Shown piece after piece: positions 698 through 27,199 of a stretch of 32,000 bases of DNA. The position numbers were made by a program, and so were the translations under genes. A model generated the notes under the pieces. It was not told where the DNA came from, did not search any database, and worked only from the letters and a program-made list of their open reading frames with translations. Position 1 is the stretch's first letter; the number at the start of each line of letters is the position of its first letter. The stretch is from positions 3,930,001 to 3,962,000 of the forward strand of contig CP060262.1 of assembly GCA_022646745.1 (NCBI GenBank), read 5' to 3'. This DNA is from Planctomycetales bacterium. GTDB lineage: Bacteria > 4484-113 > JAFGCY01.

Positions 698-1879
698 TCA
701 GAAGCCACGCCACATGGAACCCGGCGGGCCATGGAAGGTGAGTACGCTGTTGTTCCCCACCTCGAACTGGCCGATCAGACCACCGGAGAAGGTCAGGGCT
801 CCGTGGCTGCGCACCATCTCCCCATCGGCGGCCTGCCAGATGACCTGCCCGTCGGGATCCACACAGAACCCAAGCTCAGAGATGCGGAACGGGAACATCC
901 CTTCGCGCTCGACAGAGCCGTTGTAGGCTTGCTGGTAACGGACAAAGGCAAACATATGACCGTCCGGCGCACCAACGAAGTAGGAGAAGCCGGTGTCGCC
1001 AACCGGCAGTTCGGTACGCCACAGCTCCTCACCTGCCGTGCTGATGCATAGTGCGGTCCTGCGATAATCGTGAGCAAAAATCCGTCCATTGGACACGGCG
1101 GTCGGCAGGCAGGTAATGTCCATCTCGAGCTCCCATAGCAGCTTGCCATCGCTGTCCAGGGCTCGAAGCCTGCCGTCAGTGCTGTAACCGTAGAAGCTGC
1201 TGCCATCCGTCACGCAGCTCTGCATTTCGGGATTGCTCCAGAGCAATTCTCCGTTCCCGTCCAGCGCAAGGATCATCCCGTAGAAGCAGCTGATATACAG
1301 CCTTTCCCCATTCGTACTCGATTGGAGTTGGGCATTGCTCCCTACATTGAATTCCCAAAGCGGATTGCCCTGCAGGTCGAATGCTCCGAGCATCTGTGCG
1401 TCATCGTCGGCAATCACCACCATCCCGTCCAGGAACGCCGCCTCATTGCCAAACTGGCAGTCAAAGGAACGGCCATAGGTTGACAGCGTAAGTTCGGTTT
1501 CCAGCGGCACCATCACGGACGGGTCCGCCCGCGACACAAGCAGGGGCCGGGAGTATGAATCAGTGATGGCCAACCAGTCGTCATTCCAGCCGCGGATCTC
1601 GAGTCGACCGGGATTGAATGTCATTTCCGAGCCATCCGGCCAGACGGCATCCATGCCTGTACCCTGTGCAATCAGCTGCTCCGGTTCACCGGGCACCATG
1701 CGATAAAGGCTGAAAGTCGGCATGTCCAGTGAAAGGATGCTGCCATCCTCCAGCTCGGCATAGTAGTAACCGGAGAGGGAGTAACTGCGCGTGTCTGATG
1801 CCGGCAGCACTTCAGGCTGGGCTTGCAACATAGCTGATGGGATGGCAACAAGCAGCAGTGCGATGACGAGCGCTTTCAT
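698..1879 (-). CDS. secreted PQQ-like (BamB-like) beta-propeller repeat protein
   Basis: 393-aa ORF with a type I signal peptide, MKALVIALLLVAIPSAMLQA/QP. Repeats: GAFDLQGNPLWEF, ILALDGNGELLWSN, LRALDSDGKLLWEL, CISTAGEELWRT, CVDPDGQVIWQA. GGAGG lies 7 nt before the ATG. The start overlaps the upstream stop as ATGA (1876-1879). Confidence 0.8.
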   Translation of the reverse strand: MKALVIALLLVAIPSAMLQAQPEVLPASDTRSYSLSGYYYAELEDGSILSLDMPTFSLYRMVPGEPEQLIAQGTGMDAVWPDGSEMTFNPGRLEIRGWNDDWLAITDSYSRPLLVSRADPSVMVPLETELTLSTYGRSFDCQFGNEAAFLDGMVVIADDDAQMLGAFDLQGNPLWEFNVGSNAQLQSSTNGERLYISCFYGMILALDGNGELLWSNPEMQSCVTDGSSFYGYSTDGRLRALDSDGKLLWELEMDITCLPTAVSNGRIFAHDYRRTALCISTAGEELWRTELPVGDTGFSYFVGAPDGHMFAFVRYQQAYNGSVEREGMFPFRISELGFCVDPDGQVIWQAADGEMVRSHGALTFSGGLIGQFEVGNNSVLTFHGPPGSMWRGF

Positions 1880-3075
1880 AGTCCCGCCTCCAGACCATAT
1901 ACCCAGACGCCTTGCCTCGCATGCCAGACCACTATGCCTCCTCCCGCAATCGCTGACATGTGATAGTCCTCGGAAAGTACGGGGCCAAACAGCGACTGCT
2001 GCCAGGCGATCCGATCGTCTGAAACCTCAAGCATGATGATGTCACTTACGAATGCTGATCCATCCTTGCCCGCAGGTAGCTCCTCGGCGGCAGGCAGGCC
2101 CACGAGAGCAGTCCCGGCTGCCTGGCCATCCGCCAGTGGCGTGCTGCCCAGCAGCAGCACGCGAGTCCCGGACTGCACCACATCAAGCACCTGCCCTGGC
2201 AGGTCCAGCGCGTCACTGTGAACCACCAGGCTGTCGTCAAGCAGGCCAAACACCCTGCCCCAGCGCCTGCCTCCCCAGCCAATGTTGCCAGTTCCGAACT
2301 GGAAGTCCTTGAATCCGCCGCTGTCAAGCGACTCCGTGCGCATGCTCGACTCCAGCGAGAAGCTGAGCTGTTGGTCCAGCAGCTGCATACGGCCATCATC
2401 GCCATACACCAGCATCCGTCCGTCCGGCAGCACCGCCGCATGGTCCCCCCAGCGGGTGCCTTCCGGGCCGTTGATACTGTGCTTGATGCCTTGGCTGTCC
2501 AGCCAAAGGAGCTCCCGGTCCGGCGTACGATACATCCACAGCAGGTCCAGCGGCAGCTGCTGCGGGTCAAATGGATCCAGCCAGGTGTCGTAGAGTTCTC
2601 CGTTGTCAGACATCCAGCACAAGCCGCCGCTGCTGTCCAGTCCGTAATCGAAGCGCCCGTCGGAGGTCCGCACTACTGCAGGCGCTGCGTCCGTCCCCGG
2701 CAGGTGCTCCAGTGCTTTCCACGGTTCGGGATGGAATTCCCAGGCCGGCTGCCCTTGCCTGTCCACTGCCCAAGCCTGGCCACCCATGCCGGTGAATATC
2801 GTGAACCCGGGAAACTCGTAGCAGCGCCAGGCAATGTTCCAGCGCAGCCAGTCCGCATGCCAGATGTGCTGTCCCGTGGCATCATAGTGGGAGATGCCAA
2901 GGTTGACATCCTTGACATACAGGCCGCCCTTGTTGCCAACGACCACGGATGATTCGCCTGCTGCCGCTGGCAGGCTCCACTTCAGCTGCAGCGGATCATC
3001 CTGCGCCATCGCCACCCCGCCAGCCAGCAGGCATGCCAGCAAGGCCATAAGTCCCGTCACCCTTGTTCGTGTCAT
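1876..3075 (-). CDS. secreted PQQ-like (BamB-like) beta-propeller repeat protein
   Basis: 399-aa ORF with signal peptide MTRTRVTGLMALLACLLAGGVAMA/QD. Repeats: HYDATGQHIWHADW, WAVDRQGQPAWEF, GLDSSGGLCWMS. Paralogous to its neighbours. Confidence 0.8.
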   Translation of the reverse strand: MTRTRVTGLMALLACLLAGGVAMAQDDPLQLKWSLPAAAGESSVVVGNKGGLYVKDVNLGISHYDATGQHIWHADWLRWNIAWRCYEFPGFTIFTGMGGQAWAVDRQGQPAWEFHPEPWKALEHLPGTDAAPAVVRTSDGRFDYGLDSSGGLCWMSDNGELYDTWLDPFDPQQLPLDLLWMYRTPDRELLWLDSQGIKHSINGPEGTRWGDHAAVLPDGRMLVYGDDGRMQLLDQQLSFSLESSMRTESLDSGGFKDFQFGTGNIGWGGRRWGRVFGLLDDSLVVHSDALDLPGQVLDVVQSGTRVLLLGSTPLADGQAAGTALVGLPAAEELPAGKDGSAFVSDIIMLEVSDDRIAWQQSLFGPVLSEDYHMSAIAGGGIVVWHARQGVWVYGLEAGL

Positions 3076-3128
3076 GGATGGATTGTAAGGCAGGGACGCT
3101 TACTATGCACAATCGCTGTTCTACCGGC

Positions 3129-4292
3129 TTATTGTTGGCTTCCTGATGAATCGACCGGATCGAGGCAGACCAAGGTTTCCGGCTTGCGCTCATAGACGTA
3201 CAACCGGCCATCATAACCAGGCAGGTAGTTGCCATTGTGAGAAGCAGTCTTAGTCGAACTCCAGAGGAACCTGCCCTGTGGATCAATGCAGCTCCACCGA
3301 CTATCCCTGACGGTACTACCTGTTGTGAATCTCGATAAAAACATGCTGCGTCCAATACTCCAGTCAATTCGCCAGATAAAGACATATCCATCCGGACTGA
3401 TGTAATACGGCGAAGTGAACTCGTCGCCCATGTCATACACCCATTGTTCCTTGCCTTCCCGGTCATAGGCATGCAGGAACTGGCCACTGCCGACAACGCA
3501 CAGCGGGCTGCGTGGCTCCGTCAGCAGGCGTGGGAATTCCATGTCCAGAAGTGGAACCTGCCACTGCTCTTTGCCATCCCAATCAAGGCACAGCAGGTTT
3601 CCCTTATCGTCCAGCGTAACCAGCCTGTCACCCATGGACAGGGTGGAGAAGCAGCCCATGCGCTTCCAGAGCAGCTCTCCCTGCGGGCTGAGGCAATGCA
3701 ACGAGCCGGACTGGCAACCAAGAGCAATTCGCTTGTCGTCATCTGCCCTTAGCAGGTAGCTGCCTGCGTCGCCGTTGAAGCGCCAGGCAGGCTGCAGCGC
3801 AGAGTCATATGCCTGCACGAACTGGCTGTTGTAGAGGATGACCGGATTGCCATCTAGGGAGCATGCGTCAAAGCGGTCACTCATGTTTACTCGCGGGGGC
3901 CAGCCGGATCCTTCCGGAATGCCGAGTTCGACATATTCATTGCCAGCATTGCCATCCAGCACCCAGGTCCGTCCGTCAGCGGCGACGATGTAGCGTCCCT
4001 CACCGATCGGGACGAGCTGGTTGAGGCCCTGGCTCCTGAGGGCATCCGGCAGCAAAGGACTTCCGGATCCAGCGGAGCTGGCCTGCCCCAGGTCTACGCC
4101 GGAAAACTCACCAGCTGCTGAAACCTCTGCCATTCCCCTGCCGTGGTAAAGCCGCAGGCTGTTGTCAGGCAGCACTTCCATGCTGCCATACAACCTGGTC
4201 TCATATGTGTGCTGTACGTTCTCCTCTTCCGCACGGGACATATCGCAGGCGGACAGGATCATTGCGCAAAGCAGCAGGGCGATGATCCTCAC
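3129..4292 (-). CDS. PQQ-like beta-propeller repeat lipoprotein
   Basis: The track ORF is 3129..4325 with a TTG start. An internal GTG at 4292 overlaps the upstream stop as GTGA and follows GGAG. It yields a clean lipoprotein signal, (M)RIIALLLCAMILSAC. Repeats: AYDSALQPAWRF, HCLSPQGELLWKR, LCLDWDGKEQWQV, HAYDREGKEQWVY, CIDPQGRFLWSS. Confidence 0.75.
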   Translation of the reverse strand: MRIIALLLCAMILSACDMSRAEEENVQHTYETRLYGSMEVLPDNSLRLYHGRGMAEVSAAGEFSGVDLGQASSAGSGSPLLPDALRSQGLNQLVPIGEGRYIVAADGRTWVLDGNAGNEYVELGIPEGSGWPPRVNMSDRFDACSLDGNPVILYNSQFVQAYDSALQPAWRFNGDAGSYLLRADDDKRIALGCQSGSLHCLSPQGELLWKRMGCFSTLSMGDRLVTLDDKGNLLCLDWDGKEQWQVPLLDMEFPRLLTEPRSPLCVVGSGQFLHAYDREGKEQWVYDMGDEFTSPYYISPDGYVFIWRIDWSIGRSMFLSRFTTGSTVRDSRWSCIDPQGRFLWSSTKTASHNGNYLPGYDGRLYVYERKPETLVCLDPVDSSGSQQ

Positions 4293-5563
4293 TGGCCTGC
4301 TCCAATCACATAGCAGTCCAGCCAATCTCCATTGCTTATGTACACCCGGGAGCCGCTGACTGCCAGGCGAAACCTCACATTCCCGATGTACGGGATGCTG
4401 ATGCTGCCAAGTATCCGCTCATCACTGACGAGCTGTAACCTGCGGTCCGTGTTATAGCCGTAGAACCCCTGGCTTTTGAGGTACTGTGTCTTGCCGGGGA
4501 ACAGGAAGCTGTCCAGTGGCTTGATGCTGTCACCGAGTTTGCGCAGGCTGCGAGCAATGTTGTCAGCATCCTGGGTCATCAATACGAAGCCGGCGTCACA
4601 GGGCTTCACTTCGTCAATCCGGCTGCTGATCGGTGCATGCTCCGCAATCTGCCGGCCCTGCAGGTCAAGGATTGCCAGGCTGGAATCATTGAACAGCACG
4701 AGCAGGCGATTGCCGCCACAGAATGACTTATCAATCCTGACAGCGGTGGAGGGAATTGGAACCGTGAAGATCTGTGCGTCCTTGCCATCCATTAGCTGGA
4801 AGCGATCCTCACATCGCAGCAGGGGCACCTCTCCTTCAGTCAGTCCAACCAGCTGGACCAGCTCAGGAGCTGGTGCCAGTGAAGCATGCTCAACCGGCTT
4901 TGGCTCACTGAGCAATTCAGTGGACGGAACGGAGACGCTGCCATCCGGCCAGGCAGTTGTCATGTTGGCCCAGTTGATCACATAAGCCGCCTGCCCGTTG
5001 ATTGTCATCCGGGAGTGCAGGTGCTCGATCCACGGGTCTGCTCCAGGGTTGACCGTCCAGCACAATTCTCCATCAGTCCTCAGGCCGTACAGCATGGAGC
5101 CATTCTGGCTGTATAACTCGGCAGTTGGCGCAGTTGCCAGTTTCAGTGGGTCGCTGAATTCGCGGGACTGCTCATCGTATGACCACTGCCTGTTCCCGGC
5201 TGCATCCACTGCATACATCCGGCCGTCAGTCAGGCTGATGTAGCAGTTGCCATCCTGCTCATGGACGCAGTCCTTCAAGTAGACTCCTGACTCGCGAAAC
5301 GTCCAACGGACCTCTCCACTCTGTGGGTCGATCGAGATTACGCCTGCACTTATTCCACGGTTGTCCAGCAGGTACAGCCCGCCCTCATTTCCAGCCTGCA
5401 GATTCATGTACTCGTAAGCCAAGGGGATCCGCCAGGCGTGTGTGAATGGGGATTGCTCGCGTCGGCCCTGCCCCAGGTACAGCGCTCCCGCCAGCCACAG
5501 CAGCAGGCAGGCCAGCATCGTGCCGGCAATCAGCCTGTGCTCGCGGGATGTCGCTTGCTGCAT
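4289..5563 (-). CDS. membrane-anchored PQQ-like beta-propeller repeat protein
   Basis: The track ORF is 4289..5659 with a GTG start that overlaps the upstream gene by 73 nt. The in-frame ATG at 5563 gives MQQATSREHRLIAGTMLACLLLWLAGALYLG, a signal anchor, and removes the overlap. Repeats: ISIDPQSGEVRWTF, YAVDAAGNRQWSY, YGLRTDGELCWTV. The start is uncertain. Confidence 0.7.
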   Translation of the reverse strand: MQQATSREHRLIAGTMLACLLLWLAGALYLGQGRREQSPFTHAWRIPLAYEYMNLQAGNEGGLYLLDNRGISAGVISIDPQSGEVRWTFRESGVYLKDCVHEQDGNCYISLTDGRMYAVDAAGNRQWSYDEQSREFSDPLKLATAPTAELYSQNGSMLYGLRTDGELCWTVNPGADPWIEHLHSRMTINGQAAYVINWANMTTAWPDGSVSVPSTELLSEPKPVEHASLAPAPELVQLVGLTEGEVPLLRCEDRFQLMDGKDAQIFTVPIPSTAVRIDKSFCGGNRLLVLFNDSSLAILDLQGRQIAEHAPISSRIDEVKPCDAGFVLMTQDADNIARSLRKLGDSIKPLDSFLFPGKTQYLKSQGFYGYNTDRRLQLVSDERILGSISIPYIGNVRFRLAVSGSRVYISNGDWLDCYVIGAGQ

Positions 5564-5586
5564 CTGCTGCAAGCATAGCGCAGAAG

Positions 5587-5982
5587 CTAGTGTTCCTCCC
5601 AGACGATCAGCGCCGCATCCGCCAGGTCGTTGTCTGGCATTCCGAACAAGCGCCGCCACATCTGCTTGAACTCGGCCTCGTCATGCGGCCACTGTTCCAG
5701 CCACTCCCTGAATTGCGGCCACTGGAACAGCGTCGGGATGTCCCCCACCCCGCGGCAGTAGTCGTGGATCATCTCCCAGCAGATCGGCACCACCGTGCCC
5801 GGCTTCTGTGCCGTGCTGCCGCGCATGAAATTCACCAGCACGCCGCGCTCGGGCTTGTCCTCGCCGCGCACCATCGCCACCCCGGTGCCCCGGTCCACGG
5901 CGTAGTAATGCGGCTCGATGTATACGATCTGCACGGCTAGGATGATAGCCGAGGGCGGCTGCTGGGAACCTCTGGCTTGCAC
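5587..5982 (-). CDS. hypothetical small soluble protein (family not recognised), first gene of the minus-strand array
   Basis: 131-aa ORF with a GTG start and globular-looking composition (IVYIEPHYYAVDRGTG...PICWEMIHDYCRGVGDIPTLFQWPQFREWLEQW). The two ORFs overlapping it in other frames are Arg/Pro-rich junk. It has no signal peptide. The start codon is uncertain. Confidence 0.5.
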   Translation of the reverse strand: MQARGSQQPPSAIILAVQIVYIEPHYYAVDRGTGVAMVRGEDKPERGVLVNFMRGSTAQKPGTVVPICWEMIHDYCRGVGDIPTLFQWPQFREWLEQWPHDEAEFKQMWRRLFGMPDNDLADAALIVWEEH

Positions 5983-6050
5983 TCTGTAACGATTTGCCCA
6001 ACAATTGCATCAGGTAATCGGACAGTCCGTGGGAAGGAGGGGAACAGCAG

Positions 6051-7229
6051 ATGGATGGATTGCAGGAGCAGGCCGGTATCCGGCGAAAGGGCCTGACAAT
6101 TCTGCCGGCCTGGCTGCAGGACAACCCCCTGCCCGCAATCTGGCAGCTGACCCTGCTGAAGCGCAGGCGCAAGCGCCCGATCTTCCAGTTCTACTCCGCC
6201 GCTGTGCTGTTCTTCCAGGTGCTGGCGCTGCTCTGTGTCCCGGCCTACCTGATTGACTGGTACACCAATGCCTACTTCCTCACCGAGCTGCTGATGGCGG
6301 AATCGCTTCTCTCATTCTTCTGGCTGCTGCTGGAATTCACGTCATGCCTGAACTTCGCCGGCAACCTGATGCGCAGCGAGACTTCCTCCACCTTCCCGAT
6401 CATCGACGAGGCGCTGGCGGCCAGCAGCCTGCAGGACCGGGACTTCATCCTGGCAATGCTGCAGGCCAGCCTGCCGCGCCTGATGATTCCATCCGCGCTG
6501 CTCTGTCTCGCGGTGGTGATGCTATTCCAGACTGACTTCCTGCTGTATTCATACGGGTACAACGGGCTTGGCATAGCACAGTGGCTTTCACTGACAACAT
6601 TGTCAATGGTTTCGATGTCCGGCCTGCTGCTGCTGCACTTCGGCCTCGGGATGCAGCAGGAGAAACGCTTCGCCGCCAGCACCGGGACAGTGATGGCCGG
6701 ACTGGCCCAGCTGCTGACAATCGCCAGTTGGTTCCTGACCTACGACGAGGAGTGGATGACAGATTTCAGCAGCTACTGGCGCTACCAGTATTTCAACCCG
6801 CACCTGCTGGATCTCCAGAATTACTACTGCAATTCGCAGCTTGGGATGCTGCTGATCCAGTTCATGCTGGTGCTGCTGCTGCTGCACCTGGCAACGCACA
6901 ACGGATGGCTGCGCCGCCTGCTGCTGCTGGGCTGGCCGGCGCTCTGCGGCATCCTACTGACAACCTTCCTCCTCAGTCTGCAGTACATCGATCCAGAGAA
7001 TTTCTCCTACCTGACCGGACTAAGGTTCATCAGCCGCGCAGGCCAGCCGCTGTCCTTCGTCAACCTGGATGTGATATACATGCATTTTGTCGGTAACGAC
7101 ACCTCCGTGCAATCTGCCCATGTCGGCAGGCTGCAGGCATTGACGGTGCTGCTGCAGTTCGCATACGCGTTCACTTTCCTGCAGTTCGCCAGGAGAATGC
7201 TGTCCATCCATCGAAGGGGGACAGCATGA
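6051..7229 (+). CDS. polytopic membrane protein, divergent ABC-2 (NosY/GldF-type) permease-like, paralog 1
   Basis: 392-aa ORF with GGAGG at 6036-6040. About 7-8 hydrophobic spans. N-terminal amphipathic motif NPLPAIWQLTLLKRRRK starts at 6123. The loop after TM2, IIDEALAASSLQDRDFILAML, resembles the ExGTLExLLxxPhSxxEIxxGK loop of ABC-2 permeases. The stop overlaps the next start as ATGA (7226-7229). Confidence 0.6.
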   Translation: MDGLQEQAGIRRKGLTILPAWLQDNPLPAIWQLTLLKRRRKRPIFQFYSAAVLFFQVLALLCVPAYLIDWYTNAYFLTELLMAESLLSFFWLLLEFTSCLNFAGNLMRSETSSTFPIIDEALAASSLQDRDFILAMLQASLPRLMIPSALLCLAVVMLFQTDFLLYSYGYNGLGIAQWLSLTTLSMVSMSGLLLLHFGLGMQQEKRFAASTGTVMAGLAQLLTIASWFLTYDEEWMTDFSSYWRYQYFNPHLLDLQNYYCNSQLGMLLIQFMLVLLLLHLATHNGWLRRLLLLGWPALCGILLTTFLLSLQYIDPENFSYLTGLRFISRAGQPLSFVNLDVIYMHFVGNDTSVQSAHVGRLQALTVLLQFAYAFTFLQFARRMLSIHRRGTA

Positions 7230-8467
7230 TCAACAGGCTCATTGCTCATATCATGCGTATCACCCGCGGCTGGGTCACTGCCCTGCTGGATATCCGCCGC
7301 AATCCGTTGCCCGCGGCCTGGGGCATGTCCGAATCACGCGGCAATGCGGCCTACCTCAAGCGCTTCGCGATCGGGATGGGCCTGTACGGCATTGCCAGCT
7401 GGCTTGGGATCATCGCGAGCGCTAGTTACCTGACCGGTGACCAGCTGGCCAACAACAAACAGAGCTTCGTGAACAACTACTTCTTCGAGCTGGAGGACCT
7501 TGGCAACTGGCTGCTGCAGCAGCCCGGCGCTGCCTGGTGCCTGCTGCTGGCCCTGGCCTGGCTGCTTGTAACTTTCCGCAAGGCAATCACCACTTCGCTG
7601 GGCTTCCTCGACAGCGAACCACGCCAGCAGACGCATATCACCTATGACGACATGCTGGCCTGTTCGCAACTCAACGAGTACGAGGTGCTGCTCGGTGCGC
7701 TTTACTACTGTGTCCGCCTCGTGTTCCTGCCCCTGCTGGCATTCTCAATCTGTTGTGCCTATTCCACATACAGCTTCTTCGAGGCTGAGATTGCCGGCAA
7801 TTTCAACGGCGGACTCGCCGGCCTGCTGGCGCACATGTTCGCTGCAGTGCCACTGCTGTTCACCTCCGGCATGCTGGCGGCAATCGCATTGTTCCTGCTG
7901 ACAATCAGCCTGAGCCTGAGCTCCCGCCAGCGTACCGCTCCGCAGGTCGGCGGCTTCCTGCACACCACGGTGCAGTTCCTGCTGATCGTGCTGGCAGCCT
8001 ACCTGCTCTACTCGCAGTTCCAGTACTGGGGCTTCACGAATGACGCAGTGTTCCGCGATTTCGGCAACGTGATGTTCAGCATCAGCTTCCTGGTGACAAC
8101 CCTGATGCTCTACCTCGCCCGGCGGCTGAACTGGCTGCGCATGCTGCTGCAGCAGGGCTTCCCGGTGCTGCTTGGAGCCTTCCACCTGTTCTGTGCACTG
8201 CCGCTGGCCTATGCCTATACACTGGACAGCGACTGGCTGAACATGCTCAGCATTGCGGCTGACGGCCTGCGTCCACTGAGCCTGTCAGCCACGGCGCTAC
8301 AGGCCAGCTGGCTGCAGCAGATCCAACATCCCTACTGGGCGCGGGGCGACCGCGGCTTTGAGTACTACGCGATCGTCTCGCAGCTGATCGTGCAGTTGGC
8401 CTACCTCGCCCTGTTCGCTGAGTTTGCCCGTGACGCAGTGCGCCGTCGCAAGTGGGGCGTGATGTGA
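7226..8467 (+). CDS. polytopic membrane protein, ABC-2 permease-like, paralog 2
   Basis: 413-aa ORF with AAGGGGG 5 nt upstream of the ATG. Motif RRNPLPAAWGMSESRG starts at 7301. Loop: TYDDMLACSQLNEYEVLLGAL. Multiple hydrophobic spans. Confidence 0.6.
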   Translation: MINRLIAHIMRITRGWVTALLDIRRNPLPAAWGMSESRGNAAYLKRFAIGMGLYGIASWLGIIASASYLTGDQLANNKQSFVNNYFFELEDLGNWLLQQPGAAWCLLLALAWLLVTFRKAITTSLGFLDSEPRQQTHITYDDMLACSQLNEYEVLLGALYYCVRLVFLPLLAFSICCAYSTYSFFEAEIAGNFNGGLAGLLAHMFAAVPLLFTSGMLAAIALFLLTISLSLSSRQRTAPQVGGFLHTTVQFLLIVLAAYLLYSQFQYWGFTNDAVFRDFGNVMFSISFLVTTLMLYLARRLNWLRMLLQQGFPVLLGAFHLFCALPLAYAYTLDSDWLNMLSIAADGLRPLSLSATALQASWLQQIQHPYWARGDRGFEYYAIVSQLIVQLAYLALFAEFARDAVRRRKWGVM

Positions 8468-11100
8468 ATCAGGGCTGGATCGCTGCGTTTCGTGAGGCAT
8501 GGCATAGCCCGCTGCTGGAGCTCTGGCAGCGGCAGGATTCACGGCGAAGCACCCGTGGTTTCTGGCTGTCCAGCCCGGGACTGCTGCTGCTGGCCACTCC
8601 GCTTGTAATCCTGCTCTACTGGCTTCTGGTCCGCCAGCTGGGCATCCTTGCACATGCAGCTGGCAATGAAGGCATGAACCCGATCCTCGCATCGGCAGTA
8701 TTCTGGCTGGCAATCAATGCCAGCATCAAATACCTGGTCCTCATCGTTACCTTCATCTGCTGCGCCAGGCTGTATCGCGTGCTGGCGGACAGTGGCAGCC
8801 TGCTGGATGGAAGGAGCGGCAAGCGTGCACAGCTTGACAATGCAATGGCTGTCAGCATGCTGGATGACCGGCACCTGGTCGCCGCCCAGCACATCAGCAA
8901 CTTCCGCCTGCTGTATCCATGGATCGTCCTGCTGTCCCTTTTGCTGGGCCTGCACCGGGTTGTGTGCGCATTTGGCCACGCCGCTGTCGAAGCCCCGGAT
9001 GCCATCGGGCTGGCAGTCCGGCTTGTGCTTCATCCGCTTTGGTCCAGCCTGCTGGCGGCAGTGGCCCTGTTGATCCTCGGCAACTTCGCCATCGCGGCCG
9101 GCAGCGCAGCAGCAGCAAGCCGCCTGTTCCTGATTGGTGTTGCTGGGATGTCTGTCTGCCAGTTCGGCGTGGCGGCGACGCTCTACTATTTCGCAACTGA
9201 CAATTTCATTGGCATTGACGACTGCCTGGTCATGCTGCCAGCCCTGACGGGCCTGTTGCCCGGCCTGCTGCTGGTGTTCGTCGCCGGCTTCGCATCCAGA
9301 TCCGCAGGCTTGCTTCGCATTTTTTCCAGCGGGCTGGGTATGATCCCACTCGCCGGCATTGCCCTGGCGGGCCTGCTCTGTGACAGGATGTTCATGTTGA
9401 GTTTCAGCGACCAGAACATCGAGTCGGGCCTCTGCGTCTTCCAGGCCTGCGTGAACCTCCAGGCAATCTCGGTATTGCCTGTTCTGCCGGACACGCTCGA
9501 ATTCATGGGCCTGGTTGGCAATCCATATGGCAGCCCGGATGCAGTGTTCCCGGGGATGATGCTCAGCTTTCTCGTCGGGATGCAGCTCCTGCTACTGCGT
9601 GTGTCCTCCCATTTTGCTACCAGCTGCCTTGCTGAGCGCCGCGCACGACAGGAATCCGCCAATGAATCCCCCCGAAGCACTGCAAGCAAGGCAAGGAAGC
9701 AATCAGGGAATCCTCAACGAGTAGATGCAGTGTTCGCTGTCCTGCTCGTCGGTATTCCACTGCTGCTGACTATGGCAACGATGATCTCCGCCAGGTTGAT
9801 TCGTCCCCCATTGCTGGAGTCAAAAGATCCCTTCGAGCAATGGTTCCTGGACTGTTTCCAGCGCGGACAATCGCAGGCAGCATGGACCAGCGGCCTGCGC
9901 AACGGCACGATGAGCCTGCGGATGTCGGAGGTCCTTGGACAGGATTATAGCTACACTGACGACCTGATCGACCAGTCAATCCACTACCTGATGCAGGATG
10001 CTGCCGTCCGGCTCGAAACCGGCAATCCCGGCGATGTAGATCCCAGGCTGGCTCGCCTGTGCTTCATCGCCTATGAAACCAATCACTCCGTGGCTTATCC
10101 CCAGCTGACAGAGGAATGGAACAAGTTATATGAGCAGTATCCATGCCTGCAGCATGACCCCCAGGCGATTGCCATCATTGCCGAGATCAGATTGCAGAAG
10201 CTTGGCTGGGAGGATTTCGCGCCGGCGTACATGAATACGCGGCCGGCCTTTTCGTCAGATCCGAAATCAGCTTTCTACAGCCGCGACTGGATGCCGGAGG
10301 ATGACTACCAGGCACTGAAGCAGCTTTATGCCTCAATTGACGATTCGCTCGCAGACAATGCATTTCCATACCATCTGGAGGTCTGCCGCCGTTTGGCAAA
10401 TGACGACCTGAATGGGGCAATGGAAGTGATTCGTGGCAGCAGCAAAGCCCAGCTGGCAGACACGCGGCTCAATCTGCTCGCCGCGCTTGCGTTGGACGAA
10501 CCAGAGAAATTTGATCCATTGAGCCGATACTGCCTCTACTGGCCGGGGTTCAATCGGATACAGAGCATGAATAATCAATATTTCTCAGACTTCTTTTCAG
10601 CCAGTCGCCAGCTTTGTAAGGAAAGCCGTACAGACGACCTGCAACTCCTGCATGACTACATCCTCCGATTCAGCAAGCTGCTTGGGCCATATGATGCCAA
10701 CGAGATCCACCGAGCCATGCTGCAGGGGATTCCGGCAAACTACATTGGCATTGAAAGTAACCGTGCATTTAAGGATGCCAAGTCTGCCGCCAACAGCCTG
10801 CAGTACTCCGAGGCTCTATATGGTCCCAGTCCCTCAATCATCTATGGGAATAATCACACGGTGGGCATACAGTTGCTGGAAGGACATCTGGCATTTACCC
10901 GCCCTCATCCGGATTCCGTTGCGATGTATACATATTTCCTGGGACTGAATGATGAGAAGCTCGTACTGGAAGCAATGACTCAGGCTGAGCAAAGGGAATA
11001 TGAATCCATCATCTCACTTGACTGGACAGCACTGGATTGCTCACCGGCGGCGGACTCGACTGATTCCGCTGAGGAAGCAGGAGAATCGCAATCCCCTTAA
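8464..11100 (+). CDS. fusion protein: ABC-2 permease-like polytopic module (paralog 3) plus TM-anchored soluble helical module
   Basis: The track ORF starts at GTG 8452. The GTG at 8464 overlaps the upstream stop as GTGA and follows a GTGGGG SD-like run, so either start is possible. N-terminal motif HSPLLELWQRQDSRRSTRGFWLSSP starts at 8506. Loop: LDNAMAVSMLDDRHLVAAQ. From about 9715 there is a charged linker, then a TM segment VDAVFAVLLVGIPLLLTMATMI, then a soluble domain of roughly 400 aa. That domain is paralogous to the 12524 and 13948 products and shares the ending LDWTALD plus an acidic tail. Confidence 0.65.
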   Translation: MNQGWIAAFREAWHSPLLELWQRQDSRRSTRGFWLSSPGLLLLATPLVILLYWLLVRQLGILAHAAGNEGMNPILASAVFWLAINASIKYLVLIVTFICCARLYRVLADSGSLLDGRSGKRAQLDNAMAVSMLDDRHLVAAQHISNFRLLYPWIVLLSLLLGLHRVVCAFGHAAVEAPDAIGLAVRLVLHPLWSSLLAAVALLILGNFAIAAGSAAAASRLFLIGVAGMSVCQFGVAATLYYFATDNFIGIDDCLVMLPALTGLLPGLLLVFVAGFASRSAGLLRIFSSGLGMIPLAGIALAGLLCDRMFMLSFSDQNIESGLCVFQACVNLQAISVLPVLPDTLEFMGLVGNPYGSPDAVFPGMMLSFLVGMQLLLLRVSSHFATSCLAERRARQESANESPRSTASKARKQSGNPQRVDAVFAVLLVGIPLLLTMATMISARLIRPPLLESKDPFEQWFLDCFQRGQSQAAWTSGLRNGTMSLRMSEVLGQDYSYTDDLIDQSIHYLMQDAAVRLETGNPGDVDPRLARLCFIAYETNHSVAYPQLTEEWNKLYEQYPCLQHDPQAIAIIAEIRLQKLGWEDFAPAYMNTRPAFSSDPKSAFYSRDWMPEDDYQALKQLYASIDDSLADNAFPYHLEVCRRLANDDLNGAMEVIRGSSKAQLADTRLNLLAALALDEPEKFDPLSRYCLYWPGFNRIQSMNNQYFSDFFSASRQLCKESRTDDLQLLHDYILRFSKLLGPYDANEIHRAMLQGIPANYIGIESNRAFKDAKSAANSLQYSEALYGPSPSIIYGNNHTVGIQLLEGHLAFTRPHPDSVAMYTYFLGLNDEKLVLEAMTQAEQREYESIISLDWTALDCSPAADSTDSAEEAGESQSP

Positions 11101-11121
11101 CATGCTCGTCTGTGGGCGGGA

Positions 11122-12531
11122 TTGAATGCCGGGCAGCCCTCGGCTATGATCAAGGAAGAGTACCGGAGATGGCTGGAGCCATCGTATCCGGGTGGGAGCA
11201 GTATGGCGGTTCGACAACATGAACCTGAAGCAAAGCTGGACGGAGCTGTCCGGCCTGCTGCTGCGCCAGCAAAATTCCCCTCTTCACTGCGGCAGGAAAG
11301 TGGGAAAGCAGGCAGCTGGCTCGGAGCTGCCCTTGCCATCCGCCAGAATCCATTGCTGAATCTCTGGATCCTGCAGGAGAGGCGCAGGGCGGAATCCAGA
11401 AGCTTCTGGCTGTCAAACCCGGCGCTGCTGGCGGGAACATCAATTGTCAGCGTGCTCGCCTGCATCATACTGGTCCGGCAGTTACTGGCACTTGTCGAGG
11501 CCCGGACCGCCGGTGCAGTCAACCCGATGCCGGCCTCAGCCGCCTTCTGGACTGCAGTCAATGCGATCCTCTGGCTGGCGATAATCTACTTCGGCATGCT
11601 CTCCATCGGGCGGATCTTCCTCGCGATGCGCAATTCAGTCGCGCTACTGGAGACCGGCCAGGGCAACCAGCGCCTGCGGCTCGATGACAACCTCGTGATC
11701 ACGGAAATGGGCAGCCACCAGATCATCATGGCCCAGATCGCCGACAACCTGCGCCTGGTGCTGCCGGCCAACATCCCGCTGACCCTGTTGCTCGGGCTGC
11801 AGTCCCAGCTCAGCGGCTATGCAAGAATCCTTGACAACCTGCCAGGCGCGATGGACAGCCTGCAGAACCTGCTGCTGATTCCCCTGCTGTCGATAATCGG
11901 CAGCATCCTTGGCACTGTGCTCCTGGGCGCAATCCTGATCGGGGCCGGCCTGCTGGCTGACAGCACCCGCCTGCAGGTCGGGGCGGCGGTCGGTGTTTTA
12001 CTGATCCAGGCCTGGCTGTTGTTCCTGATGGCAACCGGCAGGGAGGTATTCAATCTAGGTATGGTTGAGGGCAGCGGCTGGGTGATCTCAGCGCTTGGGC
12101 TGTTCCCCCTGCTTGTAATGATGCTGCCGGTTTTCCTCGCTGGCTTCAGCCCCTTGTTTAGGCGTATCCTGGCAGGCGGACTGATCCTCTGGATGGGTTT
12201 TGCCCTGACCCTGCTGTATGGCATCTGCCTGTTGTCAGACCTGCGCATCTGGCTGGCAGAACCGAATGCTGTCGGGATGGGCCTGCAGGTCGGAAAGCAG
12301 AGCTTGCAGGTCTTCAGTTGCACGCCCCTGACAGGGATTGTCTACCAGCACTTGCAGGCGGTCATCCTCGGCAACCGGCAGGATCCTGCATTCTTCCTGA
12401 GTGTCTGGCAACCTGTCTACACCTATAGCGTCCCGCTGGCAGGATTCCTTCTGCAGGCAGCCTGCATCACCGGAGCCCTGCGCTTTGCGCTCTTGATGAT
12501 GGACAAACGGAGGCTTGGCAGCCATGACTGA
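11122..12531 (+). CDS. polytopic membrane protein, ABC-2 permease-like, paralog 4 (closest to paralog 3)
   Basis: 469-aa ORF from TTG 11122. Alternative ATG starts lie at 11146 and 11203 (GGGAG 4 nt upstream), so the start is uncertain. Motif IRQNPLLNLWILQERRRAESRSFWLSNP starts at 11347. FWLSNPALL...LVRQLLAL...AVNPMPASAAFWTAVNA aligns with FWLSSPGLL...LVRQLGIL...GMNPILASAVFWLAINA of paralog 3. Loop: LDDNLVITEMGSHQIIMAQI. Confidence 0.6.
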   Translation: MNAGQPSAMIKEEYRRWLEPSYPGGSSMAVRQHEPEAKLDGAVRPAAAPAKFPSSLRQESGKAGSWLGAALAIRQNPLLNLWILQERRRAESRSFWLSNPALLAGTSIVSVLACIILVRQLLALVEARTAGAVNPMPASAAFWTAVNAILWLAIIYFGMLSIGRIFLAMRNSVALLETGQGNQRLRLDDNLVITEMGSHQIIMAQIADNLRLVLPANIPLTLLLGLQSQLSGYARILDNLPGAMDSLQNLLLIPLLSIIGSILGTVLLGAILIGAGLLADSTRLQVGAAVGVLLIQAWLLFLMATGREVFNLGMVEGSGWVISALGLFPLLVMMLPVFLAGFSPLFRRILAGGLILWMGFALTLLYGICLLSDLRIWLAEPNAVGMGLQVGKQSLQVFSCTPLTGIVYQHLQAVILGNRQDPAFFLSVWQPVYTYSVPLAGFLLQAACITGALRFALLMMDKRRLGSHD

Positions 12532-13951
12532 CAACCATTCGGCCATGCCAGTCGAACACTCACCTGCACCTGGTCCTCCGCGGCGCTTCCTCAGGTTCGA
12601 CCGTGCACTCAGCCTGCTGCTGTTTGGGCTGCCCGCATTGCTTGCATTCACAGTCTCACTTACTGCAGTTACGGTGCCTGTTGTTCATTTCAACAGCGGT
12701 GATGAGTTTGCCGACTGGCTGTTCAATGCCGCCCTGCAGGCCCAGCATGATGCATGCTGGCAGGGTGTGAAGGCGAGCCGGGCTGCGGATAACTGGCTTC
12801 CGGAGAGCTACTATTTCAGGTCAAATGCATACTATCGGGAAAGCGTCCTCTTCGGCAACAAGCTGGCAGACGCGATCCAGCAGCAGCTGGATCTTGACCC
12901 GCATGATCCGCGGGTGATCTGGCTGGCTGCAGCTGGAATGCCCATTGATTATCGCGATTATGACAACAGCTTGCAGACAAAGTCGCGTTTCCTTCTCGAG
13001 CAGGATGCAGGGGGGATGCTGGACCGCCAGGGCCTGGAACTGCTGGCATATTTCATCAACCAGGTCGGACCGTTTGAACTGGTTGAACAGGAACGCTGGC
13101 GGGGACTTAACATTTCCTACTTCGACCTCGGCGATCCATCACAATCTGCCCTGACAGCCGAAGTCCGTGAGCAGGTGACCGATATTCTGCGGCGGGTTGA
13201 CAGTCTGCCTCCCGGCAATGCCCAGCACCTTGAACTGCGGTTCACTCAGCTGATGAACAACGACGACTTTGCCGAGGCCCTGGCACTGCTTGGCCGGTAT
13301 CCCGGGCTCGAGGCAGCGCCCAGTGACGTTGGCATGCTTGCCAGCCTCGGACTGCAGGAACCGGACGGCCTGGATGACATAACGCGTGCCCAGCTGCAGT
13401 TCTTCGGGCTTGCCAACTGGAACAACACCCTGCGCATGGACTACCAGAAAGTGCAACAGGCCAGCCGTGAGTTGCTGGCAAGCGGCAGCCTTGACAAGCT
13501 TCAGCAGCTCCACGAATTCCTCTGGAAACTCGGAGGGATGGGCAGCCCGGGCGACCAGCTTGGGCACACAGCTGAAATGCTGTCTGCCTTGCCACCATCT
13601 GTCCTGCATGACCCTGCCAACCAGGAATTCCGACTTTCACAGCAGGACATATATGCGCTGACCTCCAATTCGTGGACGGCTAATGACCCAGGCCTGCTGC
13701 AGCAGGCTGTCCTGCTCCTCGATTACCAACTCAGCGGAGAAAGGCTCGGTCTGTATGGACCGAACCCCATGTACCAGGATTACTACACTTCACAGCCAAC
13801 TCGTTCCAGGATAATCGAACAACTTGGCCCCAATGCTGCAGAACAGTTTGAGCGGATCCGCAATCTCGACTGGACATCCCTTGACCTCAGCTCAGCCCAG
13901 CCTGCTGACTTCGTTGATCCAGCTGAACAGGCCGCCTCGACTGATACATGA
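12524..13951 (+). CDS. single-pass membrane-anchored protein with large soluble (probably all-alpha) domain of unrecognised family, copy 2
   Basis: The track ORF starts at TTG 12515. ATG 12524 sits 10 nt after GGAGG (12509-12513) and overlaps the upstream stop by 8 nt. Anchor: FDRALSLLLFGLPALLAFTVSL. Then SGDEFADWLF...ELRFTQLMNNDDFAEALALL...QFERIRNLDWTSLD, which is colinear with the C-terminal half of the 8464 product. Confidence 0.6.
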   Translation: MTDNHSAMPVEHSPAPGPPRRFLRFDRALSLLLFGLPALLAFTVSLTAVTVPVVHFNSGDEFADWLFNAALQAQHDACWQGVKASRAADNWLPESYYFRSNAYYRESVLFGNKLADAIQQQLDLDPHDPRVIWLAAAGMPIDYRDYDNSLQTKSRFLLEQDAGGMLDRQGLELLAYFINQVGPFELVEQERWRGLNISYFDLGDPSQSALTAEVREQVTDILRRVDSLPPGNAQHLELRFTQLMNNDDFAEALALLGRYPGLEAAPSDVGMLASLGLQEPDGLDDITRAQLQFFGLANWNNTLRMDYQKVQQASRELLASGSLDKLQQLHEFLWKLGGMGSPGDQLGHTAEMLSALPPSVLHDPANQEFRLSQQDIYALTSNSWTANDPGLLQQAVLLLDYQLSGERLGLYGPNPMYQDYYTSQPTRSRIIEQLGPNAAEQFERIRNLDWTSLDLSSAQPADFVDPAEQAASTDT

Positions 13952-15366
13952 GACAATCAGCAACGGGGATGGATACAGCAGGCACACAACCTGGAGCGAG
14001 GAGCCGCCCACGCTGGCAGCTGATAGACCGCGCGCTGGATCTGCTGGTTGTCGGGCTGCCCCTGCTGCTGGCGCTTGCCTGTGTGATTGCCAGTTACGTC
14101 GTCAAGCCCTACCGCATGGATACCGGAGATCCCTACCTGAACTGGTATGGCAACCAGCTGATGGACAGTGCCGACCAGGTGCTGGCAACGGATCCGCTCC
14201 TGCCGGATTACTACAGCACAGGCGACTACTATCTGTTGCCTGATTTCCGCAAGCGCTTCGAGGAAGCACGAACCTCTTTCAGTGGCGATCCACGCTACTG
14301 GATGGAGTATGCCGATCTGACACGCGCCGAGATCTGGTTCGGAAGTGGTGACAACTATTCCGAACAGGACTCGGAAGCGGCTTATGAGGCAGTGATGCGT
14401 GAGGGCCTGTCCAGCCCCGGCGCCAGCCCTGAAATGTTCATCCCGCTTGAGTGCCGCCCGATCGAGACCTCAGTGCTGGCGGACGGTGTGACCCGCGGCA
14501 ACAAGGAAGGCCGACCGAATTTCCTCTGGAACCATCCGGAAGAAGTGACAGCAATGCTTGAGCAGGCCGGACGGCTGCCGGTGCAGGATACCGTCAGCCG
14601 CCTGCTGCAGGCAACATACTGGAGCTGCGGCGGGGAGTACGGGCGCGCCCGTGAACAGCTGCTGGCAATCCGGGACCAGCCGGGCCCTTCCCTGCCTGAC
14701 ATGAATGAGCTGATGATCAAGTCGGCAGCCAGACCAAACACGGCGGTCATGGCCAGCCGGGGCTGGTCCATGCAGTATCCGTCCAGCATTTACGTGGTGA
14801 ATTCTGACCTGCGCAGCGGACTGGACGAGCTGGCGGAACAGGCCTGGCTGGCCGGAGACTACGAGGTGATTGACATCCTGCGCCAGTCCATCATCGATGG
14901 CAGGGGCGCTTCCGGCACGATCCTCGGCCAGCTGATGACGACTGTCAACCTCGGCAAGGTTGACAGCCGCATCTACAAGGTCACTACCGACCCTGCTGAA
15001 CTGTCAATGATGCTAGAGCTGCGTGCCCGCAAGAATGTGTGGCGAGACAAGGTCCGCTCAACAATCGGGCGGGAACTCAGTCCCTGGGTGGTCGGACGCT
15101 GCACGCTGGAAGGTGCCCTCAGCGGTGGACGGGGCTTTCACAGCGGATACGGTATTGCCTATGGCCGTCTGCTTCAGGATGAGTATGCCGACCTGCTGGG
15201 CATCCAGCCCCAGTGGGATGCGGTTGCGAATTTCAGTTACAGCAAATTGGCCTTCCCAGACGGCTGGACACCATCTGAATCGGACCTGCGGATTGCCGAG
15301 GGAGAAATTGCCAACAATCCCGGCGAGCGCCTGTACCGCGAGGTTTCCGACGGTGAGCAACCGTGA
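13948..15366 (+). CDS. single-pass membrane-anchored protein, same soluble-domain family, copy 3 (more divergent)
   Basis: 472-aa ORF with an ATGA overlap to the upstream stop. Anchor IDRALDLLVVGLPLLLALACVI, then TGDPYLNWYGNQL. These match the anchor and first helix of copies 1 and 2. Confidence 0.55.
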   Translation: MRQSATGMDTAGTQPGARSRPRWQLIDRALDLLVVGLPLLLALACVIASYVVKPYRMDTGDPYLNWYGNQLMDSADQVLATDPLLPDYYSTGDYYLLPDFRKRFEEARTSFSGDPRYWMEYADLTRAEIWFGSGDNYSEQDSEAAYEAVMREGLSSPGASPEMFIPLECRPIETSVLADGVTRGNKEGRPNFLWNHPEEVTAMLEQAGRLPVQDTVSRLLQATYWSCGGEYGRAREQLLAIRDQPGPSLPDMNELMIKSAARPNTAVMASRGWSMQYPSSIYVVNSDLRSGLDELAEQAWLAGDYEVIDILRQSIIDGRGASGTILGQLMTTVNLGKVDSRIYKVTTDPAELSMMLELRARKNVWRDKVRSTIGRELSPWVVGRCTLEGALSGGRGFHSGYGIAYGRLLQDEYADLLGIQPQWDAVANFSYSKLAFPDGWTPSESDLRIAEGEIANNPGERLYREVSDGEQP

Positions 15367-16571
15367 GTGCCAACTGGACCAGCGCAATCCGTGGCCTGCG
15401 TGACAATCCCCTGCCGGCACTGTGGCAGCTGCAGGAACTGCGCCAGCACGGGCAGCGCAGCCGCTGGCTGTCCAGCCCCGGCTATATGCTGCTTGCCATC
15501 CTGGTCAGTGCGCTGGCCTGTTACCTGCTGCTGCTGCAACTCGGAATGGCAGGTGCGGTCTGGCAGGAGGGAGCGCACCCGGTGATTCGCCACAGCCTGC
15601 GCGGGATGGGCTTTGGCGTGTCCCTGGCTTTCACCGGAGCCATCTCCTTTCTACTGGCAATGGCCCGGCTGCACCATGGAATCCTGTTCTGCGGCAGCCT
15701 GCTGGCAATGCGGGACAGCCGCCGGCGCTGGGCCTTTGATGAGGTTGTGGCATCAACTGAGCTTGGCAACCGGGAGATCATCGCCGCGGCGATCTGGCAT
15801 TCGCTGCGCCGCGTGATGCCACCACTCGCACTCAGCCAACTGGTGTTTTCGGTGATGTCCGGCATCTGGGTGGCTGACATGCTGCATGACCACTCCCTCC
15901 CGGATGCAGCATGGCGCTGGCTGCTGCCCCTACTGTTCCTGCTGGGCATGCTGCTGCTGTCCACGCTGGCTGTCGCCACCCTTTGCGCCCTCTCGATCTC
16001 CACCAGCAGTCCTGACCAGCACCCGGCCCAGCCAATGCTGCTGGCAGCGAATGCCTACCCGCTGCAACTGCTGATGCTGGCGGCCCAGCTTCTGTTGCCG
16101 ATCTGGCGTCCAGATGAGTATTACACCGAAGCCCCATCTTTACTGGTGGTGAATCCACTGGATGTCGTCTCGCTGGGGTTCGGAATGCTGATGCCCGTCA
16201 TCATGGTCCTGCTGCTGGAACTGATGTGCCGGGCTGGCAACACCCGAAGTTATGCGGCCTTTGCCCTGCTGCCGGTGGTCGGCCTGCTGCTTGCCTTTGG
16301 CTGGGGCGTGATGTCAATTGTCTATGACGAGCTGCTGTCCTCCACATATCCGCTGGATGGACCCCTTTTCAGCCTCGCATCCAACTGGTGCATCTTCCCG
16401 TTGTACCTCAGCTATCCACTGCAGGACCTGGCCCGCAACGGTATTCCAGGCTATGCGATTCACTGGATGAGTCTCTGCCTGTTTCCCGTACATTTGCTCC
16501 TGCTCCTAGGTGCCCTTTACAAATTTGCGCAACGAGCAGCCGGGAACCTGGACCGCGAACTGCGGGTCTGA
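15363..16571 (+). CDS. polytopic membrane protein, ABC-2 permease-like, paralog 5
   Basis: 402-aa ORF with a GTGA overlap to the upstream stop. Motif LRDNPLPALWQLQELRQHGQRSRWLSSP starts at 15405. Loop: FDEVVASTELGNREIIAAAI. Multiple hydrophobic spans. Confidence 0.6.
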   Translation: MSANWTSAIRGLRDNPLPALWQLQELRQHGQRSRWLSSPGYMLLAILVSALACYLLLLQLGMAGAVWQEGAHPVIRHSLRGMGFGVSLAFTGAISFLLAMARLHHGILFCGSLLAMRDSRRRWAFDEVVASTELGNREIIAAAIWHSLRRVMPPLALSQLVFSVMSGIWVADMLHDHSLPDAAWRWLLPLLFLLGMLLLSTLAVATLCALSISTSSPDQHPAQPMLLAANAYPLQLLMLAAQLLLPIWRPDEYYTEAPSLLVVNPLDVVSLGFGMLMPVIMVLLLELMCRAGNTRSYAAFALLPVVGLLLAFGWGVMSIVYDELLSSTYPLDGPLFSLASNWCIFPLYLSYPLQDLARNGIPGYAIHWMSLCLFPVHLLLLLGALYKFAQRAAGNLDRELRV

Positions 16572-16663
16572 ACCAGCGCTTCTCCCGGGATTGTGGCGGG
16601 AACCACTGCTCCGGGTTAGAATCAAACGGCTGAAATCTGTTTCGATACTTGGGGGTATCGGAT

Positions 16664-20770: not shown

Positions 20771-20812
20771 AATCATATCAGTTTCACGGGATCTCGTGAA
20801 ACTGATATGATT
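20771..20812. terminator. perfect 18-bp AT-rich inverted repeat (hairpin) 10 nt after the stop of lipoprotein A; possible terminator or attenuator without a canonical U-tract
   Basis: aatcatatcagtttcacg (20771-20788), loop ggatct, cgtgaaactgatatgatt (20795-20812). The arms are exact reverse complements. The hairpin is followed by aaaggtactt rather than a T-run. Confidence 0.4.
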
Positions 20813-20820
20813 AAAGGTAC

Positions 20821-20849
20821 TTGAAATTTGATTAATGTGTACGTATACT
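20821..20849 (+). promoter_or_regulatory. candidate sigma70-type promoter for lipoprotein B
   Basis: TTGAAA (20821-20826), 17-nt spacer, TATACT (20844-20849), in an AT-rich island directly after the hairpin. It would give a leader of about 350 nt to ATG 21206. Confidence 0.4.
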
Positions 20850-21205
20850 GTTTCCATAGCTTCGGCTGCGCTCTGGGAGCCAGCTGGAAGACACGCGCAA
20901 TTGAGGAAGTAGGAATTGCTTGATCAGCATTCGAACTTTCGGATCACAGGGGCTGCTGTGAACCTCGCAGTCCTTTGCGCGCATATTTACTACCCCGGCA
21001 CCGCATGCAATTGCCGTGCTGCGACACATGCTTCCCAGTACTCCGGCCGTCCTGGACCGGTCGAGATAATCCGGCTGAAACATACTGCATGAGGAGGTAT
21101 CTGATGTCCAGTCGTGGCAGCAGTGTTGCCACTCGAAACCCTGCCTACCGGGCGGGTCAATTGCGCTTATTAATTATTTCCATACCAACATCTATAGGAG
21201 TTATC

Positions 21206-26432: not shown

Positions 26433-26531
26433 ATATCTGTTTAGAACCTCCCGGGGGCGGGAATTACAGACGGTTTGGAAAAGGAAGCAGGAACTTCCCC
26501 GAACTGAATAATCTAATCTGAGGTGACTGAC

Positions 26532-27176: not shown

Positions 27177-27199
27177 CCCCGGCCTCCCCCTCGGAAACA

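Follow-up and report, generated by a model that had tools for sequence, protein, structure and literature searches.

A genuine in-frame fusion of two rare membrane protein families in a Planctomycetales bacterium

When two protein families that normally come from separate genes are found in one reading frame, it has to be asked whether the join is real and what it says about the two proteins when they are apart. This question is raised by a gene, here called F, on the forward strand at 8464-11100 of a 32,000-nt window (the whole stretch of DNA analysed here) from a Planctomycetales bacterium (GenBank assembly GCA_022646745.1, contig CP060262.1, positions 3,930,001 to 3,962,000). Its 878-aa product, read from the GTG at 8464, consists of a polytopic membrane module (M), a linker, a transmembrane (TM) anchor and a soluble domain (S). 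A first-pass annotation of the window had described it as a permease-like module joined through a charged linker to an anchor-plus-soluble module, and had taken the fusion as direct evidence that the two families act as one complex with a fixed topology. The modular layout was borne out, with the membrane module ending at 9633 and the linker lying at 9634-9720, and all the peptide strings quoted for it were found in the translation of 8464-11100.

The open reading frame (ORF) at 8464-11100 is a genuine, conserved in-frame fusion of the M and S families. At the junction (9640-9715), where a frameshift or assembly error could have created an artificial fusion, none was seen: the DNA is 100% identical and gap-free in two assemblies, L002 (Logan SRR12358676), which spans the whole F gene, and L011 (ENA ERZ28655281), which reaches aa 563. 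The codon-position GC periodicity keeps to a single frame across the junction, where both of the other frames contain stops. An orthologue, P0002 (870 aa), encoded in the metagenome-assembled genome (MAG) GCA_041395205.1, shows the same fusion, with 32% identity over 99% coverage and a linker whose length differs from that of F by 1 aa; it is the only distant full-length homologue of F. The locus of P0002 (L001) is syntenic with the window, showing divergent propeller genes followed by F, M3, S1, S2, M4 and a gene resembling B2, a giant lipoprotein-like gene of the window. The identity between the two loci was 55% for M3, 42% for S1, 42% for S2 and 41% for M4.

The start of F could be placed at GTG 8464 or GTG 8452, the latter giving an ORF of 882 aa. 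The best start is GTG 8464, which overlaps the stop codon of the preceding gene M2 as GTGA and agrees with the public gene call P0001 (identical) and with the orthologue start MKQGW. The M module occupies aa 1-390 (8464-9633) and was identified as a polytopic membrane domain by BLASTP matches to M3 and M4, a hydropathy and charge map, and an AlphaFold2 model. It begins with an amphipathic motif, predicted to be cytoplasmic (8473-8580), for which a 42-sequence alignment (A8) gave the consensus GW..A.R..r.(N/S)PL...W.....RR....W..SPG, and the W, P, L and W of this motif are invariant in an 8-sequence alignment (A3). The most conserved loop of the family lies between TM2 and TM3, on the predicted cytoplasmic side (8833-8919, LDD.LA.S.L...E....LR...PP in A3 and A8), and the Asp of its LDD (D125) is nearly invariant across the M family in both alignments. 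The M module is joined to the S module by a basic low-complexity linker of 29 aa, ERRARQESANESPRSTASKARKQSGNPQR (aa 391-419, 9634-9720, ERRARQ...NPQR).

The S module starts with the TM anchor VDAVFAVLLVGIPLLLTMATMISARL (9721-9798), which is common to S1 and S2; the anchor string VDAVFAVLLVGIPLLL begins at aa 420 (nt 9721), and its D, L, G, P, L and L positions are invariant in alignment A1. The anchor is followed by an acidic, all-helical domain, predicted to be periplasmic (9799-11037), which was recognised by BLASTP to S1, a profile match to S2-type proteins and the AlphaFold2 model. Its landmarks are KDPFEQWF (9823-9846), DPRL (10033-10059), a single TPR-like motif (10303-10446) and ISLDWTALD (11011-11037), which carries the LDWT motif and is directly followed by an acidic C-terminal tail (11038-11097).

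F lies in a run of forward-strand genes at 6051-16571, in the order M1, M2, F, M3, S1, S2, M4, whose boundaries overlap or are closely spaced. The stand-alone M paralogues are M1 (6051-7229, 392 aa), recognised in alignment A3 and by hmmsearch with the family profile, M2 (7226-8467, 413 aa), which is identical to NCBI H7A35_15860 from a 'Planctomycetales bacterium' MAG, M3 (11122-12531, 469 aa as an ORF) and M4 (15363-16571, 402 aa). The stand-alone anchor-plus-soluble proteins are S1 (12524-13951, about 475 aa) and S2 (13948-15366, 472 aa), the latter belonging to a divergent S2-type subfamily. M3 is the nearest paralogue of the N half of F and its stop overlaps the S1 start by 8 nt; S1 is the nearest paralogue of the C half; M4 overlaps S2 by 4 nt. 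The start of M3 is ambiguous (11122-11360): TTG 11122 is used in the ORF list, one public call uses ATG 11203 (442 aa), and the public protein P0006 (392 aa) puts it at TTG 11353, which would drop the conserved N-terminal motif. A protein of the representative library, P0007, is 86.6% identical to M4, which indicates a third, closer relative of the locus.

BLASTP showed that aa 1-400 of F match M3 with 31% identity over 299 aa (E 1.5e-21) and M4 with E 1e-12, and that aa 401-882 match S1 (the 12515/12524 product) with 25% identity over 249 aa (E 1.2e-16). By these alignments the similarity of both halves to stand-alone products is far above chance, and the proposed colinearity with the 12524 product, which an absence of significant similarity would have overturned, is upheld. 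All five M modules of the window align, and positions W, P, L, W, D, R, Q and P are invariant (A3). The proposed colinearity with the 13948 product, S2, was recovered in part. No significant BLASTP similarity was found between S2 and F or S1, and profiles built from 2-4 sequences matched S1-type proteins only over the first ~60 columns, which cover the anchor and first helix (hhalign probability 96.6%, E 6e-10). However, a profile of S1-type proteins (7 sequences) and one of S2-type proteins (9 sequences) were colinear over 415 columns (98.7%, E 1.6e-16), and this end-to-end alignment takes in the C-terminal LDWT / F-D-Y-T-T-L motif. At the level of profiles, the colinearity of the C half of F with S2 is thus real but remote.

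The extent of the two families was examined with a HMMER profile of F, P0002, M3, M4 and S1 against 1.84 billion representative proteins at E <= 1e-3, and the total came to 45 proteins (clusters). By domain mapping, roughly 35 of these members, ~400 aa long, consist of M alone, a few are S1-type and 5 are fused. Other searches returned little: word-index homologue searches gave self matches and the proteins of one other MAG, a scan of genome contigs recovered the L001 contig alone, a metagenome scan with the S2-type motif yielded two short loci, and a full-text literature search found nothing relevant.

The search for split and fused forms in other genomes, which the first-pass annotation had proposed, proved productive on both sides. 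Besides F and P0002, the fused proteins include P0025, P0026 and P0029 (765-801 aa), in which a six-TM M module is followed by a ~40-aa basic linker, an anchor and an S2-type domain starting TGD..YDWY. In a crude neighbour-joining tree of M modules (290 columns), the pair of F and P0002 has the M3 clade as its sister, and P0025, P0026 and P0029 form a separate clade, which indicates two independent fusion events, with the S2-type fusion arising independently of F. On L004 (5084-9852), the P0025 gene stands alone, divergent from an extracytoplasmic function (ECF) sigma factor gene and from a gene for a 587-aa protein without a Pfam match. As for the split forms, an M gene is directly followed by an S-family gene, with an overlap of 4-8 nt, in every locus that has enough flanking DNA. 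M is followed by an S1-type gene on L006 and by an S2-type gene on L008, L012, L013 and the plus strand of L007, the minus strand of L007 carries M, S and a second S, and both the window and L001 have M3, S1 and S2 in this order. L012 and L013 belong to a single assembly (ERZ21869578), in which the cassette stands by itself, two genes surrounded by housekeeping genes. Neither an ATPase gene nor any other third gene recurs beside the M-S pairs in the loci examined.

The adjacency of M to a following S is strictly kept even where homologues share only ~25-30% identity. M and S are normally an overlapping two-gene cassette, and this pairing indicates that the two work together. The fused form fits the same picture, in that each half has stand-alone homologues, the fusion is reproducible and present in the orthologue, and the split forms share the neighbourhood. 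The number of stand-alone M genes is less constant. L001 lacks M2 and keeps a 51-aa remnant of the M1 C-terminus (L001 9849-10004) directly upstream of the fusion gene, which shows that M copy number varies (5 in the window versus 3).

The comparison of F with M3 and S1 also suggests how the fusion may have come about. The M3 stop (TGA 12529-12531) and the S1 ATG (12524) overlap by 8 nt, and the distance separating the conserved C-terminal RR of M from the conserved D/R-A-L, where the anchor begins, is 78 nt in F compared with 82 nt in M3/S1, suggesting that the linker is made of the old M tail and the old S head. As M would end, and S begin, in the cytoplasm, a small frame-restoring indel at such an overlap could merge the pair and leave the topology of the parts unchanged. 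Because the halves of F are closest to M3 and S1, the simplest and most likely history would be duplication of an M3-S1-like pair followed by merger, presumably before the two genomes split; this order of events is our reconstruction.

For the topology, the hydropathy and charge map and the AlphaFold2 helix map agree on the layout of the M module, which was read as eight TM helices. TM1 and TM2 are followed by the long LDD loop, placed in the cytoplasm, and then by six membrane helices between loops that are by turns acidic (outside) and basic (inside). The number of Lys plus Arg residues is 6 in the N-terminal amphipathic segment, 7 in the TM2-TM3 loop and 9 in the linker region (the linker-containing loop by hydropathy, aa 383-426 of the 882-aa ORF); the loops in between are acidic with few Lys and Arg residues, and the S domain has 63 Asp plus Glu versus 36 Lys plus Arg. 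This distribution suggests that both termini of M are cytoplasmic and that the S domain is periplasmic. Stand-alone S1 and S2 have basic N-tails ahead of the anchor, and an S2-like homologue on L015 has a cleavable-looking signal peptide in place of the anchor, both of which fit a periplasmic S domain. The six-TM fused proteins have the same TM parity as F. On this basis M and S probably pair as one membrane unit, with the M termini in the cytoplasm and S in the periplasm.

The M module was modelled confidently by AlphaFold2 from the 42-sequence alignment, with a predicted local distance difference test score (pLDDT) of 80.9 and a predicted TM-score (pTM) of 0.80. Foldseek of this model against the PDB gave 0 matches at E <= 1e-3, the best having E 0.046 and TM-scores of 0.16-0.19, and sequence-profile searches of the PDB with M profiles (A3, A8) and S profiles (A1, A9) returned nothing significant. 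Pfam, NCBIfam and PADLOC scans of the operon proteins likewise gave nothing meaningful. For S, the closest approach was to TPR proteins: the S-family profile reached them below threshold in the PDB (E 0.07-0.4, with LapB and SRP72 at about 0.07), Pfam TPR_19 matched 2 of 15 S homologues with values up to 1e-4, and the TPR-like motif of F (aa 614-661) matched CTPR3 weakly, at 21% probability by hhalign. No TPR model of Pfam reached threshold in the S proteins of the window.

What would such a pair do? In the most far-reaching reading, which has a probability of about 0.25, M-S would be an undescribed two-component envelope machine in which M has a fold outside the PDB and S is its dedicated periplasmic helical partner, the cassette having been amplified (5 M, 3 S) to handle or anchor adjacent fast-evolving surface proteins, and the fusion fixing a 1:1 ratio of M to S. 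In the reading that we favour, M and S probably form one inner-membrane complex. M would be its membrane-embedded platform of 6-8 TM helices, and its conserved residues, which are mainly on the cytoplasmic face, could form a docking or regulatory surface. S would be bitopic, with a short basic N-tail, an anchor with a G-(L/I)-P motif and a ~430-aa acidic all-helical periplasmic domain, and may act through its weak TPR-like motif as a helical adaptor that binds other envelope proteins. A scaffold or adaptor role of this kind is put forward tentatively. Speculatively, the clients in this lineage would be the neighbouring secreted propeller proteins and giant lipoproteins.

These neighbours flank the operon on both sides. 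Upstream, four paralogous secreted proteins are encoded divergently on the minus strand (698-5659), of which those at 698, 3129 and 4289 match Pfam PQQ_2/BamB-like propellers (PQQ_2 E-values 2.9e-12, 4.6e-10 and 1.1e-7). Downstream on the plus strand lie B1 (16649-20761, 1370 aa) and B2 (20975-26227, 1750 aa as an ORF, with a likely later start), two giant lipoprotein-like proteins with 37% identity over 1435 aa and lipobox-like LSAC and AASC at their N-termini; neither belongs to a Pfam or NCBIfam family. As hints of a client relationship, the synteny is kept in L001, where the divergent secreted/propeller arrangement and a B2-like gene after the operon are both present, and a propeller gene is adjacent to an S2-like gene in the unrelated locus L015. 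On that metagenome contig (12-2897) the propeller gene lies directly upstream of the S2-like gene.

Several observations weigh against the favoured reading or parts of it. The window has 5 M modules versus 3 S modules, so M apparently can exist without an S of its own, and L015 carries an S2-like gene without an upstream M. In the AlphaFold2 M model the anchor helix has a pLDDT of ~52-58 and no confident packing on M, and the model of full-length F (8 sequences) has a mean pLDDT of 56, with an S domain that is all-helical but poor and Foldseek matches that are meaningless. The topology comes from simple hydropathy and charge counting, and DSSP on the M model gave one continuous 66-residue helix (180-245) where hydropathy gives two TM segments, so that the count of eight rests on charge parity. 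The M-module tree that separates the two fusion types is, as said, a crude one. Finally, the propeller and giant-lipoprotein genes are absent near L004-L008, L012 and L013, and the link is seen only in two related genomes, plus the one propeller-S2 adjacency on L015, suggesting that this association is lineage-specific.

One alternative, an unlikely one, is that M is a true permease, either a secondary transporter or an ATP-binding cassette (ABC) membrane domain, and S a periplasmic accessory that captures or gates the substrate. M is polytopic, conserved Gln residues (Q233 and Q374) lie inside predicted TM helices, and the model has a short helix at 124-130 between long TM2 and TM3 extensions, a conserved cytoplasmic apex helix reminiscent of the coupling helices in ABC exporters. 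At the N-terminus, the basic NP(L/V) motif is similar to the start of some ABC-2 permeases, and the weak Foldseek matches include NarK and type IV ABC exporters. Against this, besides the PDB results given above, Pfam gave no transporter family in 8 or in 42 M-family members at E <= 5-10, and NCBIfam none in the 42. No internal structural repeat is detectable either, as hhalign of the N half versus the C half of M gave a probability of 0.1%, and no ATPase gene lies next to M or S in the loci examined. The term permease-like, used in the first-pass annotation, is thus unsupported by family, fold, repeat or ATPase neighbour, and describes hydrophobicity only.

It is likewise improbable that M-S is a transmembrane signalling device, in which S would be a periplasmic sensor and M would relay to a regulator such as an ECF sigma factor in an anti-sigma-like manner. 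The most conserved M motifs do face the cytoplasm in the predicted topology, and the fused P0025 gene is divergent to the ECF sigma factor gene and the 587-aa gene on L004. But a sigma factor is found near one of ~8 loci, the others being pairs of genes set among housekeeping genes, no domain of a known anti-sigma or signalling type was detected, and 5 M plus 3 S modules in one operon would be unusual for a sensor.

Rather less credible still is a tolerated accident, by which overlapping genes fused and M and S are co-expressed without forming a physical complex. Overlapping genes fuse easily, and F is the most diverged operon gene between the two genomes (32% versus 41-55% for M3, S1, S2 and M4). 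Yet the fusion has been kept across this deep divergence with the motifs of both halves and the linker length conserved, a second fusion type is found in a separate clade, and the M-to-S adjacency is strict even among distant homologues. An artefact that merged two genes, whether through a frameshift in sequencing or assembly or through a chimeric join near 9640-9715, could in principle arise from a one-base error, as split M-S pairs overlap by 4-8 nt, but it was rejected and is effectively refuted already by the identical junction in L002 and L011, the 32%-identical fused orthologue with a linker of near-identical length, the constant coding frame with stops in the other two frames, and the three fused proteins of another subtype (P0025, P0026, P0029).

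Taken together, the split pairs and the second fusion type support the part of the first-pass claim that concerns functional linkage of the two families more strongly than the first-pass annotation had grounds for. For the part that took the fusion as direct evidence of one complex with fixed topology, the support is indirect: a physical M-S complex is plausible from the pairing, as is the topology from charge distribution and hydrophobicity. The pairing of M and S in one membrane unit remains the probable outcome.

Some further features of the surroundings were recorded. Comparison of the window with a related MAG (L003) showed a mosaic divergence. B2 (window 20811-26059) is 84% identical at the nucleotide level to L003 18145-23389 over 5.3 kb, and a segment upstream of M1 (window 5557-6047), which includes a small minus-strand ORF (5587-5982), is 88% identical to L003 9354-9845. 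The M/S operon shows only ~67% patches (25-55% at the aa level) against the related MAG, and the propeller genes are ~23-29% identical in aa. Either the operon is hypervariable together with the propeller genes, or there was a recent exchange of the flanks. From its L001 homologue, the true start of B2 is probably near ORF aa 78 (about 21206).

The downstream genes at 26523-31003 look unrelated to the operon. They include genes for a protein with a BsuPI-type protease-inhibitor domain, a Redoxin protein of the AhpC/TSA family (minus strand), a Nudix regulator similar to NrtR, an ABC substrate-binding protein of the phosphonate type, and a very acidic protein that carries a YacP/NYN domain at its C-terminus; the ORF of this last protein overlaps the NrtR gene, and its real start is probably later. 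A protein of 236 aa encoded at 31140-31850, with an extremely high content of Lys and Ala and without a Pfam match, resembles the histone H1-like nucleoid proteins.

Neither M nor S is represented in Pfam, NCBIfam or the PDB, and both families are rare, yet they form a strictly conserved, translationally coupled pair. Such a pair, together with two fusion types, comes near to the strongest argument that genome sequence alone can give for a dedicated two-protein membrane unit. M also offers a confident predicted structure without a detectable solved relative in the PDB. The natural fusion provides a topology hypothesis, a single-chain structural target and an annotation handle for Planctomycetales-like MAGs; if the envelope-machine reading is true, it would fix a 1:1 M:S stoichiometry and be a ready-made construct for structure determination. 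The novelty lies in the protein families, and no new mechanism is demonstrated by them.

Three known systems invite comparison. With ABC-2 and type IV-V ABC membrane domains, M shares a polytopic layout, an N-terminal amphipathic basic helix before TM1 and a conserved short helix, predicted to be cytoplasmic, between TM2 and TM3. It differs from them in that none of the 42 M members matches Pfam ABC2_membrane or another ABC membrane family, no significant structural match was obtained, and no gene for a nucleotide-binding protein is adjacent in the loci examined. TPR or helical-repeat periplasmic adaptors work with inner-membrane partners, such as CcmI with CcmF/H and LbcA with CtpA, and LapB is a membrane-anchored TPR protein. 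S resembles them in having one anchor and a domain that is all-helical, as predicted, and acidic, whereas its motifs GDP..(D/N)W, DPR.W and LDWT are not TPR features and no homology of the S domain to CcmI, LapB or LbcA was detected. The closest parallel is with Rosetta-stone (domain-fusion) gene pairs, an established concept for inferring functional linkage. That concept names an evolutionary pattern rather than a functional family and is silent on the role of M-S, but the likeness is plain: both halves of F exist on their own in homologues whose genes are adjacent and translationally coupled, and the fused form recurs. A Rosetta-stone fusion of overlapping genes is in itself classical; what is new here is both protein families and the cassette that they form.

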